Assembly (NCBI GenBank): GCA_036564905.1
Contig: DATCOD010000194.1
Span: 7,240 to 71,239, forward strand
Origin: Candidatus Limnocylindria bacterium
GTDB taxonomy: Bacteria > Chloroflexota > Limnocylindria > P2-11E
Reading direction: 5' to 3'
DNA: 64,000 bases
The notes beneath the pieces were generated by a model. The model saw nothing but the letters and a program-made list of their open reading frames with translations, was not told the DNA's origin and did no database searches. Positions within the stretch are counted from its first letter, which is position 1. Each line of letters starts with the position of its first letter. The position numbers and the translations under genes are program-made. Shown here piece by piece: positions 1,372 to 5,740 of this stretch.

Positions 1372-2343
1372 ATGGACAGGCGGCCCGCGGTCCTGATCGT
1401 CGACGATGACCCGGCGACCTGCCGCATGCTGATGGAGCGACTCGCCGAGGATGGGATCGCGAGCGAGTCCGCTCACGACGGCGTGACGGCCCTGCGGCGT
1501 GCGATCGCGCTCCGGCCCCAGCTCATCATCCTCGACCTCGCCCTCCCGGAGCTGTCCGGCGATCAGGTGTTCGAGCGGCTGCAGGCCGATCACCGCACGC
1601 GGTACACGCCGGTCGTGTTCCTCACCGGCTCGTCACGGCGCGATGACAAGGTCCGTCACCTACGCGCCGGCGCCGACGACTACGTCACGAAGCCATTCGA
1701 CCTCGAGGAGCTCGCCGCGCGCGTGCAGACGGCGCTGCGGCGATCGCGGACGCTCGGCGGACTGAACCCGCTCTCCGGCCTCCCGGGGAACACGGCGATC
1801 TACGAGGAGATCACCGCGCGCCTCCGGTCTGGCGAGCGATTCGCCTGCCTCTACGTCGACATCGACAACTTCAAGAGCTTCAACGATCGCTACGGCTTCA
1901 CGCGCGGGGACACGCTCATCACCGAGCTGGCCGAGGCGATCTTCGGGGCCGTGGCGGCGGCCGGCGAGGACGCGTTCCTCGGCCACATCGGCGGGGACGA
2001 CTTCGTGATCCTGTGCTCCGTCGACCAGTCGGAAGCCCTGGCCGACGAGATCGTGGCGCGCTTCGGTGTCCGCTCACGTCAGCTGCACGACGCGGGCGAC
2101 ATCGCGGCCGGCGGCTACGAAGCGCCGGACCGTCGCGGGCTCCGGAGCCGCTGGCCATTCGCGTCGGTCTCGGTCGGCATCGCGCGATCCGACGCGCGCG
2201 CGTTCCCGACGGCCGCCGCGCTCGCGCAGGCGGCCGCTGAGATGAAGACGGTCGCGAAGCGGCAGTCCGGCCAGCGGGTCGCCCTCGATCGCCGTGGCCC
2301 GCGGGCGGAGTCGCGTGCAGAGGCGCATTCCCACCGGTCCTAG
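1372..2343 (+). CDS. Response regulator with receiver (REC) domain fused to a GGDEF diguanylate-cyclase domain; signature reads GGDDF
   Basis: N-terminus 'MDRRPAVLIVDDD...ILDLALPELSG...YVTKPF' is a typical REC domain. C-terminus 'LYVDIDNFKSFNDRYGF...HIGGDDFVIL' is a GGDEF domain. ATG at 1372 gives a canonical REC N-terminus; the longer ORF begins at 1309. Confidence 0.8.
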   Translation: MDRRPAVLIVDDDPATCRMLMERLAEDGIASESAHDGVTALRRAIALRPQLIILDLALPELSGDQVFERLQADHRTRYTPVVFLTGSSRRDDKVRHLRAGADDYVTKPFDLEELAARVQTALRRSRTLGGLNPLSGLPGNTAIYEEITARLRSGERFACLYVDIDNFKSFNDRYGFTRGDTLITELAEAIFGAVAAAGEDAFLGHIGGDDFVILCSVDQSEALADEIVARFGVRSRQLHDAGDIAAGGYEAPDRRGLRSRWPFASVSVGIARSDARAFPTAAALAQAAAEMKTVAKRQSGQRVALDRRGPRAESRAEAHSHRS

Positions 2344-2459
2344 ACTCGCTCCTCGTGGACACCCTCGAGCGGCCCGCGACCGTCACACAGTCGCAGCGGA
2401 CCGAGATCGAGGCGCAGCGCCAGGCGACGAGCGAGACCCGCCGCGCGACCGTGCCGGCG

Positions 2460-4670
2460 ATGGAAGCGCTCCTCTATCAGCCCATCCCGGTCCTCGACCA
2501 CGGCTTCATCCGGGTGATCGACTACATGGGCGACGACGCGGCGGTCGTGCAGGCCGCGCGAGTGTCGTACGGCGCCGGGACGAAGAAGATCCGCGAGGAC
2601 GCGGGCCTCATCAACTACCTGATGCGTCACCGGCACACCTCGCCGTTCGAGATGTGCGAGATCAAACTGCATGTGAAGCTGCCCATCTTCGTGGCCCGCC
2701 AGTGGATCCGGCACCGGACCGCGTGCCTTGCCGGTGACACGAAGCTCTGGTTCGACCTCCCAAATGGGCTCAAGCGGGGCGGTCGCGCAATCAGCTCGAC
2801 GACCATCGAGCGGTTCCACCGAGAGTGGCACGAAGGCTCGAGGCATCCGATCCCTAAGAAGAAGCCGACCCACATGGAGGATGTCGATCCGGAGCGCTGG
2901 TATTCGGTACCCGAACTCGCCAAGCTCGTGCACCGGCGTGCGGAATCGCTGAGGAATCAGATCCGGGAGGGGTCTCTCGAAGCCACCCAGCGACCGACGA
3001 AGGACCCCCACGAGCCGCAGCTCTGGATCAAGGGCTCTGCGTGGCATGACTTCGCGAACCACACCTACATAGCGAAGGTCGATCTGCAGGACGTGCTCTC
3101 GCGCCGGCTCCTTCGTCACTGCGACGAAAGCAGCGGTGAGATCGACGACACGCGCGTCCTGGACGTATGGGAGACCGGCGTTCGGCCCGTGTTCAAGGTG
3201 ACGCTCGCCAATGGGTACTCGGTCAAGATGACCAAGGATCACTTGTGCCTGACTTCGGATGGCTGGAAGACCTTGGAGCAGGCCACCGGAGTTCACATGG
3301 GCATGGGCGGCGGCGCTACATGGCGTGAGGATTCTCCGCGGTTCGCCGTGAATGGCGTACCGGCGCACCACGACCGCGAATGGCTACAAGCCCGCCGGGC
3401 CGAGGGGCTGCAAGTCCAAGCGATAGCCGACCGCGCAGGTGTCTCGTATCACACGATCAGAAAGGCGTTGCAGCGCCACGGGCTGCAGTTCACTGCGAAA
3501 GAGAAGGCGAAGTTCTCCGGGCTAGCCCAGCGCGGCCAACGGCGAACCTTCGCTCGGCATCAGCACAGTCCCGAGGGCCTCGCTCGGATCCGCGTGGCTC
3601 GTTCTGGCCGAGCTTCTAACTTCTGGAAGGGCGGAGTCACTGTCGAACGACAGCTGATCGGCGCATGGACGACAAGTCACGCCCGGGCGGTCCACGAACG
3701 GAACGGATTCAGCTGCGTCATGTGTGGCGGCAAGGGTCGATTGAATGCCCACCACGTCGATCCGGTCTGGCATAACCCTGAGCGATCGCGCGAGATCGAC
3801 AACCTGACGACCCTGTGCGGGCGTTGCCACCGGGACATCCATCGGATGAATCTGGAACTGGCGCTGCTTGAGGAGGCGCAGAGCGGAGACGTCGCGTCGT
3901 TCTGGCAGCGACACGCAACGTCCCAGCCACGGCACCCAGCGAAGCGCAAGCCCCCCGTGCGGAAGCTGGTCCGCGGTTGGTCGGCCGTTGAGCGCATCGA
4001 GTACGCAGGCGAAGAAATGACCTACGACATCGAGGTGCTCGGTCCGGATCACAACTTCGTGGCGAACGGGTTCATCGTTCACAACAGCGTGAACGAGTAC
4101 TCGGCTCGCTATTCGATCCTCGACCGAGAGTTCTACGTGCCTGAACCGGAACAGCTCGCCGTCCAGGCGACATCGAATCGGCAGGGACGCGGAGAGGTGA
4201 TCACCGGGGAGCGCGCCCAGCAGATCCTTAGCGTCCTCAGGCAGGACGCGGACAGGATGTATCGCGACTACGAGAGCCTCTTGAACGAGACCGCTTCAGG
4301 CGAGGTGCTCGTGCCGGAGGAGCAGGGGCTGGCACGCGAGCTCGCGCGAATGAACCTGTCGGTGAACTTCTACACGCAGTGGTACTGGAAGACGAATCTT
4401 CACAATCTTTTGAACTTCCTCTCGCTGCGCGCGGACGCGCATGCGCAGTACGAGATCCGCGTCTACGCGGAGGTTCTGCTGAAGGTGTTGAAGGACTGGG
4501 TCCCGCACACGTACTCCGCCTTCATGGACTACCGGATGGGCGCGTACGAGCTGTCGGCAAAGGGTCTCGCGGCCGTGCGCCGCTTGCTCCGTGGCGAACC
4601 GGTCGAGCGCGAGTCGACCGGCATGTCGCCGGGCGAGTGGCGCGAGCTCATGGAGACGCTCGAGCGCTGA
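2460..4670 (+). CDS. thyX: Flavin-dependent thymidylate synthase ThyX, interrupted by an in-frame intein (extein about 282 aa)
   Basis: N-extein 'LDHGFIRVIDYMGDD...YLMRHRHTSPFEMCEIKLHVKLPIFVARQWIRHRTA' followed, after the intein, by 'SVNEYSARYSILDREFYVPE'. This reconstitutes the ThyX signature RHR-X7-S (RHRTASVNEYS). Alternative longer start at 2355. Confidence 0.9.
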   Translation: MEALLYQPIPVLDHGFIRVIDYMGDDAAVVQAARVSYGAGTKKIREDAGLINYLMRHRHTSPFEMCEIKLHVKLPIFVARQWIRHRTACLAGDTKLWFDLPNGLKRGGRAISSTTIERFHREWHEGSRHPIPKKKPTHMEDVDPERWYSVPELAKLVHRRAESLRNQIREGSLEATQRPTKDPHEPQLWIKGSAWHDFANHTYIAKVDLQDVLSRRLLRHCDESSGEIDDTRVLDVWETGVRPVFKVTLANGYSVKMTKDHLCLTSDGWKTLEQATGVHMGMGGGATWREDSPRFAVNGVPAHHDREWLQARRAEGLQVQAIADRAGVSYHTIRKALQRHGLQFTAKEKAKFSGLAQRGQRRTFARHQHSPEGLARIRVARSGRASNFWKGGVTVERQLIGAWTTSHARAVHERNGFSCVMCGGKGRLNAHHVDPVWHNPERSREIDNLTTLCGRCHRDIHRMNLELALLEEAQSGDVASFWQRHATSQPRHPAKRKPPVRKLVRGWSAVERIEYAGEEMTYDIEVLGPDHNFVANGFIVHNSVNEYSARYSILDREFYVPEPEQLAVQATSNRQGRGEVITGERAQQILSVLRQDADRMYRDYESLLNETASGEVLVPEEQGLARELARMNLSVNFYTQWYWKTNLHNLLNFLSLRADAHAQYEIRVYAEVLLKVLKDWVPHTYSAFMDYRMGAYELSAKGLAAVRRLLRGEPVERESTGMSPGEWRELMETLER
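2724..4085 (+). mobile_element. Intein (454 aa) inside thyX carrying an HNH homing-endonuclease and an HTH domain
   Basis: Block A 'CLAGDTKLWFDL' with Cys1 at 2724-2726; block B 'KMTKDHLCLTSDGW'; C-terminal blocks 'EEMTYDIEVLGPDHNFVANGFIVHN' then +1 Ser. Asn codon at 4083-4085, Ser at 4086. Internal HNH 'CVMCGGKGRLNAHHVDPVWHNP...NLTTLCGRCHRDIH' and HTH 'LQVQAIADRAGVSYHTIRKALQRHG'. Confidence 0.85.
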
Positions 4671-5740
4671 AGACCGACCGCGCGGGGTTCGTGTGGGACC
4701 CGCGGCTCGCGTCCCACGTCTACCGCGCCGACCATCCGTTGAAGCCGAGGCGGCTCATCGGCGTGCATGACCGGCTCGAGCAGCTCGGCGCGTTCGGGCG
4801 CCCGAACGCCGTCCTCCTCGAGCCACGCGAGGCGACGATCGCCGAGCTCGAGCGCATCCACTCGCCGGAGTACGTGCGTGCCGTCGTGCAGGCCTCGGGC
4901 GATCCGGACCGTGACTACTCGCGCTGGGGCCTGTCGGCCGGTGGCGACACACCGCCGTTCACGGGTATGCACGAGGCGTCGCTCCTCACGACCGGCGGGA
5001 CGCTCCGCGGCATGGACGCGGTCCTCGCGGGGGACCTCCGCGTCTCGTTCAACGGAGCAGGCGGGCTGCACCACGCGATGCGCGGCCGCGCCTCGGGCTT
5101 CTGCATCTACAACGACCCCGCGATCGCCTGCGGACTGCTCGCCGATCGCGGCCTCAAGGTCGCGTACGTGGACATCGACGCGCACCACGGCGACGGCGTG
5201 CAGGCCGCGTTCTACGACACCGATCGGGTCCTCACGATCTCGCTGCACGAGACCGGACGCTCGTTGTTCCCGGGCACCGGCTTCGCCGACGAGCGGGGGA
5301 CCGGCGCGGGCGCTGGCTACAGCATCAACGTCGCGCTGCCGCCGTACACCGACGACCGCGCCTACACGACGGCGTTCGACGCGGTCGTGCCGCCGCTCGT
5401 CGAGCGCTTCCGGCCGGACGTGCTGGTGACGCAGCAGGGGATCGACTCGCACTTCAGCGACCCGCTCACGCACCTCCAGGTCTCCACGCGCGCGCGCGAG
5501 CACGTCGTCCGCGCGTTCCGCGGCTTCGACCTGCCCTGGGTCGCGATGGGTGGGGGCGGCTACGACCTCGATGCGGTCGCGCGCGGCTGGTCCATCGAGT
5601 ACCTCGTCATGCTCGGCGCGCCGGTGCCCGACGAGCTCCACGATGCCGATCCGCCGGAGTGGACCGGCGACGAACGCGACTCGATCGACATCGCGACGGA
5701 CGTGGCGGTCCAAGACGCGCTCGCGGCGGCGTTCCGTTGA
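4637..5740 (+). CDS. Histone deacetylase superfamily protein (acetoin utilisation AcuC / acetylpolyamine amidohydrolase-like)
   Basis: 'FVWDPRLASHVY...HPLKPRR', 'GGLHHAMRGRASGFCIYND', 'YVDIDAHHGDGVQAAF' are HDAC zinc-site motifs. Start inferred as the GTG just upstream of the thyX stop. Confidence 0.75.
   Translation: MARAHGDARALKTDRAGFVWDPRLASHVYRADHPLKPRRLIGVHDRLEQLGAFGRPNAVLLEPREATIAELERIHSPEYVRAVVQASGDPDRDYSRWGLSAGGDTPPFTGMHEASLLTTGGTLRGMDAVLAGDLRVSFNGAGGLHHAMRGRASGFCIYNDPAIACGLLADRGLKVAYVDIDAHHGDGVQAAFYDTDRVLTISLHETGRSLFPGTGFADERGTGAGAGYSINVALPPYTDDRAYTTAFDAVVPPLVERFRPDVLVTQQGIDSHFSDPLTHLQVSTRAREHVVRAFRGFDLPWVAMGGGGYDLDAVARGWSIEYLVMLGAPVPDELHDADPPEWTGDERDSIDIATDVAVQDALAAAFR

Follow-up and report, generated by a model that had tools for sequence, protein, structure and literature searches.

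Within a 64,000-nucleotide (nt) stretch of DNA from a Candidatus Limnocylindria bacterium (contig DATCOD010000194.1 of assembly GCA_036564905.1; the whole stretch is referred to below as the window), the thyX gene for flavin-dependent thymidylate synthase (FDTS) carries at 2724-4085 an insert that we identify with high confidence as a class-1 intein, and with the same confidence its splicing is predicted. The complete explanation put forward here, in which the ThyX intein splices and its in-frame HNH nuclease mediates homing with co-conversion of flanking DNA, is in our judgment very likely; splicing as such, the site and specificity of cleavage, and ongoing homing are steps that we infer from sequence.

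The thyX open reading frame (ORF; 2355..4670, plus strand) is open throughout its 771 codons. The codon for Cys1, TGC at 2724-2726, stands directly 3' of CGG-CAC-CGG-ACC-GCG, which encodes RHRTA. The intein ends with CAC-AAC (His-Asn) at 4080-4085 and is followed by AGC (Ser+1, 4086-4088) within AGC-GTG-AAC-GAG-TAC-TCG (SVNEYS). The insert occupies exactly 2724-4085, i.e. 1362 nt or 454 amino acids (aa), and its surroundings read ...QWIRHRTA/C...HN/SVNEYSARYS (a slash marks a junction or insertion point here and below). This reading of the DNA agrees exactly with the original prediction, in which a continuous 771-codon frame with a 454-aa insert had been proposed at the same positions. When the insert is removed, the rebuilt intein-free target site of the window is CAGTGGATCCGGCACCGGACCGCG/AGCGTGAACGAGTAC.

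The host protein is ThyX. Pfam Thy1 was matched in two separate stretches of the ORF (E 3e-49, 167.8 bits vs a cut-off of 24.8), and the NCBIfam thyX equivalog TIGR02170 scored 186.5 bits vs a cut-off of 87.9. The exteins align with residues 6-87 and then 87-261 of Thermus ThyX (6j61), and with residues 13-94 and then 95-221 of Thermotoga ThyX (1kq4), in both cases with no gap at the junction. The contiguity of the two extein halves on ThyX, which had been proposed as a check, was thus observed against both proteins. The RHR-X7-S motif of ThyX is broken in the precursor and, as had been predicted, would read RHR-TASVNEY-S once the intein is spliced out. The insertion point lies two residues past the RHR that binds flavin adenine dinucleotide (FAD) and five ahead of the motif serine (Ser88). 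By our own reading of the numbering, which assumes a 12-residue tag in 1kq4, we take this point to be between Ala82 and Ser83 of T. maritima ThyX. In FDTS structures, the RHR residues make hydrogen bonds to the phosphate, ribityl and isoalloxazine groups of FAD (PMC6514825). Since RHR contacts FAD and the insertion splits the motif, the unspliced precursor should be inactive. The computed sizes are 88.3 kDa for the precursor, 36.6 kDa (317 aa) for spliced ThyX and 51.7 kDa for the free intein, with an isoelectric point (pI) of 9.6; the earlier estimate of ~32 kDa for the spliced enzyme has to be corrected accordingly, and that for the intein had been ~50 kDa. With the spliced 317-aa product as query, 119 intein-free ThyX proteins were found that are 316-317 aa long and 78-84% identical to it; the product is colinear with these orthologues of the same length.

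The insert was assigned the Hint (Hedgehog/intein) fold, complete with every catalytic residue. It matches Pfam Intein_splicing (44.3 bits vs a cut-off of 35.8), TIGR01445 intein_Nterm (25.2 bits vs 24.5) and TIGR01443 intein_Cterm (23.2 bits vs 15.6), and in a phmmer search against solved structures its Hint N-lobe matches the DnaB inteins 4o1r and 1mi8. Together with the HNH match and the extein alignments, these scores lie far outside what chance would give. The AlphaFold2 (AF2) model of the intein has a predicted local distance difference test (pLDDT) score of 91.7. Residue conservation was read from an alignment of 77 intein relatives, and the junctions were parsed in 111 relatives. It can be seen that, first, Cys1 of block A is invariant in both sets; a Cys or Ser nucleophile at this position sets class 1 apart from classes 2 and 3. 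Secondly, in block B (T170-K-D-H173), H173 is invariant and D172 is conserved in at least 90% of the 77 relatives. Thirdly, D435, N444, H453 and N454 of blocks F and G are invariant in the alignment, with H443 conserved in at least 90%. All of the 111 relatives with both junctions have the form RHRxx/C...HN/SxNExS, so that the +1 residue is Ser in each of them, and most of their inteins are 448-459 aa long. The class-1 hallmarks on which the prediction had been based (Cys1, TxxH, the terminal His-Asn and Ser+1) are therefore present and invariant or nearly so in the 77 relatives, and the proposed comparison of the segment with Hint profiles gave matches to the Pfam and NCBIfam intein models.

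The region between the Hint lobes contains an HNH nuclease, for which the Pfam HNH score is 31.9 bits vs a cut-off of 21.4. The nuclease core (intein residues 331-376) shows the pattern C331-x2-C334...H343-H344...N360...C365-x2-C368-H369...H373, all positions of which are invariant or nearly so, and a His general base, an Asn and a metal-binding His, which make up the HNH catalytic motif, are all found. At the putative zinc site, C331, C334 and C365 are invariant among the 77 relatives and C368 is conserved in at least 90% of them. The conserved pattern from C331 to H373 indicates that the nuclease belongs to the zinc-finger subclass of HNH. A LAGLIDADG nuclease was also considered and was rejected: no such family was found among the Pfam and NCBIfam matches at E<=0.1, and the region consists of a helix-turn-helix (HTH) and the HNH core. 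The HTH, at about residues 216-252, is suggested by sub-threshold matches to Pfam HTH_23, HTH_38 and Sigma70_r4_2. Between it and the core lies a basic helical stretch with the motif SNFWKGG (298-304), in which S298, F300 and G303 are invariant. The model places helices at 218-251, 258-269, 283-292 and 308-326, and beyond the core at 378-387 and 393-396. In addition, an Xis/MerR/BldC-like winged helix-turn-helix (residues 44-128) sits within the Hint N-lobe; this insert is absent in shorter relatives and in a mini-intein (P0121). The HNH nuclease, the HTH and the winged helix had not been recognised in the original prediction. The coordinates of all these parts are collected in Table 1.

Table 1. 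Parts of the interrupted thyX gene in the window, followed by the insertion points of homologous inteins in the ThyX motif. GC3, GC content at third codon positions; dN/dS, ratio of nonsynonymous to synonymous substitution rates.
Feature	Position or occurrence	Strand	Evidence or remarks
N-extein of thyX, residues 1-123, ends RHR + Thr-Ala	2355..2723	+	Thy1, TIGR02170; 6j61 6-87, 1kq4 13-94; GC3 0.94, host-like
Hint N-lobe part a, intein residues 1-43, block A (C1-L-A-G-D)	2724..2852	+	
Winged-helix insert, intein residues 44-128	2853..3107	+	
Hint N-lobe part b, intein residues 129-190, block B T170-K-D-H173	3108..3293	+	TIGR01445; H173 invariant; 4o1r, 1mi8; dN/dS 0.03-0.06
Linker + HTH + basic helical region, intein residues 191-330	3294..3713	+	Sub-threshold HTH matches; model helices; pI 10.7-12.0
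Zinc-finger HNH core, intein residues 331-376	3714..3851	+	
Post-core helices + linker to Hint, intein residues 377-414	3852..3965	+	Model helices; least constrained, dN/dS up to 0.32
Hint C-lobe, intein residues 415-454, blocks F and G (D435, H443, H453-N454)	3966..4085	+	TIGR01443; dN/dS 0.015-0.05
C-extein of thyX, Ser+1 to stop, begins SVNEYSARYS	4086..4670	+	6j61 87-261, 1kq4 95-221; S+1 invariant in 111 junctions
Approximate mosaic tract (putative co-conversion)	2654..4416	+	Last ~70 nt of N-extein + intein + first ~330 nt of C-extein
Insertion point RHRxx/SxNExS	Window's own site		
Insertion point RHRxxSY/SQQSxRY	Archaeal virus vir335 (L002:2171-3655), viral contigs		
Insertion point .../SxRY, ahead of motif serine	Cyanobacteria		
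Insertion point ...S/SRAIP	Divergent Thy1-like proteins		

The DNA-binding modules were seen to differ among relatives, for example in the loci L082 (Tolypothrix), L044 (Thermoplasmata) and L043, and in some relatives two tandem HTH units of the form 'LYRxxxWL...IA...G.S..T.R.W' replace the winged-helix insert. This variation between tandem HTH and winged helix suggests modular evolution of target recognition.

The mechanism that we propose would begin with an N-S acyl shift at Cys1 that gives a thioester, after which the chain would be transferred by trans-esterification onto Ser+1. Asn454 would then cyclise with the assistance of His453, and an O-N shift would yield the 36.6-kDa ThyX with an intact RHRTASVNEYS together with the free 51.7-kDa intein. 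By means of its winged helix, HTH and basic helices, the free intein would bind the motif-coding DNA of an empty thyX, and the HNH core would nick or cut this gene near the same DNA. Recombinational repair from the intein-bearing allele would copy not only the intein but also the adjacent extein DNA (co-conversion).

Empty, full and reduced states of the gene were observed at one and the same locus. In genomes that share the gene order acetyltransferase, FecR-like, response regulator-GGDEF, thyX, deacetylase, Yip1 and acetyl-CoA synthetase, the orthologous thyX is empty in L085, L086, L088 and L089, carries the full intein in the window, L083 and L084, and carries a mini-intein in L087. The last of these (L087:1823-3391, protein P0121, 522 aa) has a mini-intein of 205 aa without the winged helix and the HTH-HNH region; intermediate deletion forms with inteins of 379-399 aa are found in P0009, P0010 and P0012. 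The syntenic intein-bearing loci are 92-95% identical in the exteins and 76-83% identical in the inteins. The intein had been suggested as a strain or lineage marker, a suggestion that needs to be qualified: among the Ca. Limnocylindria-like genomes, all of one class, the intein is polymorphic, being present in some and absent from others. The DNA upstream of thyX (about 300-2343 in the window) also varies among these loci: L085, L087 and L088 lack the FecR-like gene, and L089 lacks the gene for the response regulator-GGDEF protein.

The intein differs from the host genes in composition. Its GC3 is 0.77 vs 0.927 +/- 0.012 in size-matched codon samples of seven host genes, i.e. ~13 standard deviations (SD) below. 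By part, GC3 is 0.94 in the N-extein, 0.77 in the intein and 0.87 in the C-extein, and the same gradient was obtained with L083 and L084. The drop begins at about codon 101 of thyX and lasts to about codon 700; values of 0.90-0.95 are regained only ~120 codons past the intein. Total GC of central and 3' thyX is likewise lower (0.61-0.65) than that of the flanks at 1309-2343 and 4700-5740 (0.71-0.74), an observation that is not confined to the intein.

A mosaic tract around the insertion point was revealed by sliding windows with the intein removed (Table 1). Over the N-extein and the genes downstream, identity to the empty loci L085, L086, L088 and L089 is 0.83-0.93; across ~400 nt at the site it falls to 0.50-0.63, and it is back up by about 4500. 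Across the same tract, identity to the intein-bearing loci is 0.70-0.88. At the protein level, intein-free relatives share 92.7% identity over residues 1-110 and 83.7% over the distal C-terminus, compared with 65.5% in between, over residues 136-245; for intein-bearing relatives the values in the N-terminal, middle and distal segments are 95.6%, 92.1% and 87.7%. When the window and L083-L089 were compared over spliced nt ~300-700, at least four allele classes were distinguished, with DNA identity between classes of 0.50-0.72 and identity in flanks and neighbouring genes of 0.83-0.93 for all pairs. Outside the site and the tract, thyX alleles of all classes share 86-93% identity; inside the tract, members of one class share 82-98% and members of different classes 62-82%. 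Moreover, the histories of intein and extein are incongruent, since exteins that are 90.6% identical carry inteins only 58.7% identical, and exteins that are 34.6% identical carry inteins 59.8% identical. Exteins at ~90% identity with inteins at ~59% indicate replacement and not simple descent. Taken together, these signatures are those expected of the homing cycle, with invasion accompanied by co-conversion of the flanks, vertical persistence and decay of the nuclease. Recent or continuing homing is, in our view, fairly probable.

The target site itself varies among the relatives. The sequence QWIRHRTASVNEYS is not found in the intein-free alleles of the lineage, whose main classes read QFLRHRVASANEVS, EWVRHRVANLNEIS and QQIRTRTAAVNEYS; QAVRSRTVSLNEYS represents a minor class. 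The alleles with altered motifs are L085:3001-3954, L086:3001-3954, L088:3001-3954 and L089:3001-3951, which were compared with 2694-2723 plus 4086-4115 of the window. The changes affect motif residues that are nearly universal in ThyX elsewhere. Some intein-free alleles have Thr or Ser in place of the RHR His (RTR, RSR), Gln is found instead of Trp, and in some the +1 Ser, the would-be splice nucleophile, is Ala or Asn. At the site L085 reads QQIRTRTAA, L088 reads EWVRHRVAN and L089 reads QFLRHRVAS. Over 84 nt centred on the insertion, intein-free alleles differ from the rebuilt site at 23-32 positions, and intein-bearing alleles differ mutually at 7-8. Intein-bearing alleles of other phyla preserve the stretch at the site almost without change, as in Eisenbacteria, where one locus shows 86% identity over 90 nt. 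It is attractive to see in the altered sites a putative escape from the endonuclease. Homologous HNH inteins occupy at least four insertion points within ~7 residues of the ThyX motif, each ahead of a Ser or Cys (Table 1; the loci surveyed were L034-L082 from cyanobacteria, L002, and the viral contigs L096-L105 and L111). Tentatively, the thyX motif region of this Limnocylindria-like lineage may be seen as a long-running battleground between the homing intein and its host gene, in which the endonuclease has driven diversification of the active site, although we would not favour this over its contrary. If true, changes in the motif would both abolish the nuclease target and make a new insertion lethal, and the several Ser or Cys insertion codons elsewhere would look like re-targeting after escape of the site.

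Several results weigh against recent or continuing homing. A donor of the divergent C-extein tract was sought among the intein-bearing alleles of other lineages and none was found; the best foreign match to the tract, 69.5%, is no better than that of intein-free relatives. The mosaic relation holds among the intein-free classes as well, so that recombination or selection independent of the intein may account for some of the pattern. With 23-32 differences in 84 nt, susceptible targets may be rare today. The synteny and the extein identity of 92-95% suggest that in this clade the intein may now pass vertically. These points lead to the most serious alternative, namely that the intein is genuine and splices but is fixed and vertically inherited, its HNH domain being unused for homing (decaying or otherwise kept) and the tract being an old footprint or unrelated. 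We regard it as rather unlikely. Syntenic carriers with such similar exteins and with inteins 76-83% identical fit descent from a single invasion, and the deletion derivatives P0121 (205 aa), P0009, P0010 and P0012 (379-399 aa), as well as the strong divergence of target sites in nearby intein-free alleles, are also in its favour. However, the HNH core and the winged helix appear to be under purifying selection: in comparisons with two full-intein loci (L083, L084) the HNH core has a dN/dS of 0.04-0.16, the winged helix one of 0.06-0.12 and the complete intein one of 0.08-0.09. These values are rough because dS is saturated (1.0-2.2), which in turn weakens the case for homing. The catalytic and zinc ligands are kept across phyla, GC3 of the intein still stands ~13 SD under that of the host genes, and exteins of ~90% identity with inteins of only ~59% imply replacement. 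Homing with putative co-conversion is preferred here.

Another possibility is that the intein is kept mainly as a conditional-splicing switch, which would gate ThyX and the supply of deoxythymidine monophosphate (dTMP) by redox state, metals or DNA damage. An insertion within the catalytic motif necessarily leaves the precursor inactive, the Cys1 nucleophile is sensitive to redox state, at least 90% of relatives conserve C133 and C175, and conditional splicing is established for other inteins (cited in 10.1101/2025.01.02.630785). Nevertheless, none of this evidence is specific to regulation, many sister genomes live without the intein, and the mini-inteins drop the nuclease and keep Hint, as a selfish element would. 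In addition, by alignment with the Ssp DnaB intein, C133 and C175 presumably stand where buried hydrophobic residues are. It seems quite improbable, therefore, that a switch is the main reason for which the intein persists. The view that the segment is never removed, being a permanent HNH/HTH insertion in a bifunctional ThyX-nuclease, an assembly chimera or a pseudogene, can be dismissed with very little doubt, since the Hint fold is complete with every catalytic residue, the split active-site motif must be contiguous, the same architecture has been assembled independently in hundreds of metagenomes and metagenome-assembled genomes (MAGs), and the 771-codon frame is intact and under purifying selection.

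The class-1 intein of the window belongs to a very large family. A search with the intein alone retrieved 364 proteins, and among the best 120, all 115 that include extein are ThyX (Pfam PF02511). A HMMER search of 1.84 billion cluster representatives gave 170 clusters (50% identity) at E<=1e-30 and 623 at E<=1e-10. A local ThyX hidden Markov model fits 120 of the 149 best HMMER matches, and of 10 remaining ones tested, 8 match Pfam Thy1; it follows that the intein family is all but confined to ThyX. Relatives are encoded at no fewer than 336 loci in GTDB species genomes from many phyla, and among the matches listed there none exceeds 57% identity. The bacterial carriers include Eisenbacteria, Myxococcota, Planctomycetota, Chloroflexota, Acidobacteriota, Elusimicrobia, Eremiobacterota, Binatia, Fibrobacterota, Gemmatimonadota and many Cyanobacteria, and the archaeal carriers Thermoplasmata; the nearest named proteins are from Candidatus Limnocylindria, Chloroflexota. 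Relatives of up to 48% identity occur on viral contigs, some of them 204 and 360 kb in size, and further viral carriers are cluster C1 mycobacteriophages and a Methanomassiliicoccales virus. Phages that encode ThyX with inteins related to this one are plausible vehicles between lineages. The intein that had been predicted is thus real, and its unusualness is lower than had been supposed, as it is part of a family that is not only large but also partly described.

Two further observations were made within this family. A divergent Thy1-like protein (L016, L018-L021 and L023 from Eremiobacterota and Binatia; L131 and L142 from viruses) hosts inteins of the same family with the winged-helix insert. 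Its junction reads THRQF/C...HN/SRNSASSRAIP, a SPFEH motif is found near the C-terminus, and Pfam Thy1 covers only the second half (66 bits). In P0379, a ThyX homologue of 1058 aa, the Pfam matches point to seemingly two inteins, an upstream one of LAGLIDADG type and an HNH-type one at the motif.

ThyX inteins as such were already known; as far as we have searched the literature, the present clade, the winged-helix insert and the population-level footprints are without prior description. A catalogue of 2016 includes two ThyX inteins from mycobacteriophages (Kelley et al., PMC5050341), and a 2025 survey names thymidylate synthase among the phage hosts of inteins with 'non-canonical' nucleases, including in-frame HNH, and describes such architectures as rare (Gosselin et al., preprint, 10.1101/2025.01.02.630785). 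In the cluster C1 mycobacteriophage Cane17, the intein of gp82 lies at the same point of ThyX (RHRSGF/C...HN/SYNEES vs RHRTA/C...HN/SVNEYS in the window), and in the extein alignment the junctions of the window and mycobacteriophage inteins coincide. Both inteins have the class-1 residues and an in-frame HNH nuclease. However, the homology is distant and the similarity low overall (in tblastn, the 169 aa of intein residues 286-454 match at 31-32% identity with E 5e-11), and the phage intein, with 253 aa vs 454 aa, lacks both the winged-helix insert and the greater part of the HTH and helical stretch; moreover, its host is a phage, whereas the intein of the window resides in a bacterial chromosome.

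A ThyX intein of Trichodesmium erythraeum ('Ter ThyX') was reportedly described in 2004 by Liu & Yang (J Bacteriol 186:6316). By taxonomy and by the title of that paper we presume that this intein goes with the cyanobacterial loci studied here. The cyanobacterial inteins share the host protein and motif with that of the window, and they are likewise class-1 inteins with HNH (Pfam on L035), with 28-39% identity to residues ~120-454 of the window intein. In contrast, their junction (THRVGVSFDVQ/C...HN/SFRYTG) lies immediately ahead of the motif serine, 5-6 residues downstream of that in the window, so that they are homologous but non-allelic by the usual definition; they have no winged-helix insert, and some have a duplicated HTH (L082). 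Mini-intein derivatives of Ter ThyX gave ~100% splicing in E. coli (PMC3620165). This indicates that ThyX inteins of such kind can be active.

Most characterised inteins use LAGLIDADG nucleases; for HNH-type inteins in the literature, Dalgaard et al. (1997) is cited. Compared with HNH inteins generally, the family of the window is large and almost exclusively found in one host gene. I-HmuI and I-TevI are modular homing endonucleases of the HNH or GIY-YIG type. The window intein resembles such enzymes in that a small nuclease core is tethered to HTH and winged-helix modules, here in-frame within a splicing element. The fold matches include 1dfa, 1gpp and 1jva, which are structures of PI-SceI (the VMA1 intein). 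Besides its nuclease domain, PI-SceI has an extra DNA-binding module grafted into Hint between block A and block B. The insert in the window differs from it in being a winged helix (Xis/MerR-type) and not the fold of the PI-SceI DNA-recognition region (DRR), and the nuclease in being HNH and not LAGLIDADG.

The surroundings of thyX are those of an ordinary chromosome, with genes for acetyl-CoA synthetase, gamma-glutamyltranspeptidase, HisG, IlvD and an aconitase-family protein, and when the window's 10 longest ORFs besides thyX were examined, none showed a Hint or intein domain. Two antisense ORFs (2340-3371 and 3522-4082, minus strand) lie within the intein. They were considered as a nested nuclease gene and are read instead as high-GC artefacts; because the in-frame HNH domain is intact, no such nested gene is needed. 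Downstream, an ORF of the deacetylase family, as mechanically called (4379-5740, plus strand), shares ~290 nt with the 3' end of thyX. The deacetylase gene called in the syntenic loci starts anywhere from 33 nt before to 93 nt after the thyX stop, and hence its start in the window is probably near 4640-4720.

In the databases, the relatives' fragments P0011 and P0106 and the RefSeq phage records NC_054716.1, NC_041901.1 and NC_021346.1 are labelled 'HNH endonuclease', the GenBank copies of the same phage genes are labelled 'ThyX-like thymidylate synthase', and the intein is unannotated in all of these records. The present gene and hundreds like it are labelled 'FAD-dependent thymidylate synthase' or 'HNH endonuclease, partial'; the mature enzyme here would be the 317-aa ThyX, and the HNH domain in such genes would be a selfish passenger. 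HNH inteins are considered rare, and the locus offers a full-length one, identified with high confidence, whose large family is essentially restricted to one host gene. Its compact combination of winged helix, HTH and HNH is a candidate sequence-specific nickase or cleavase, and its Hint domain is a candidate tool for splicing, a use in which Ter ThyX, a distant relative, performs well as a mini-intein and as a split intein (PMC3620165). No new kind of system is revealed, and the value of the locus is that of a good study system. Since empty, full, mini-intein and altered-site alleles occur at one syntenic locus of uncultivated soil bacteria, both the homing cycle and escape of the target are directly testable there.

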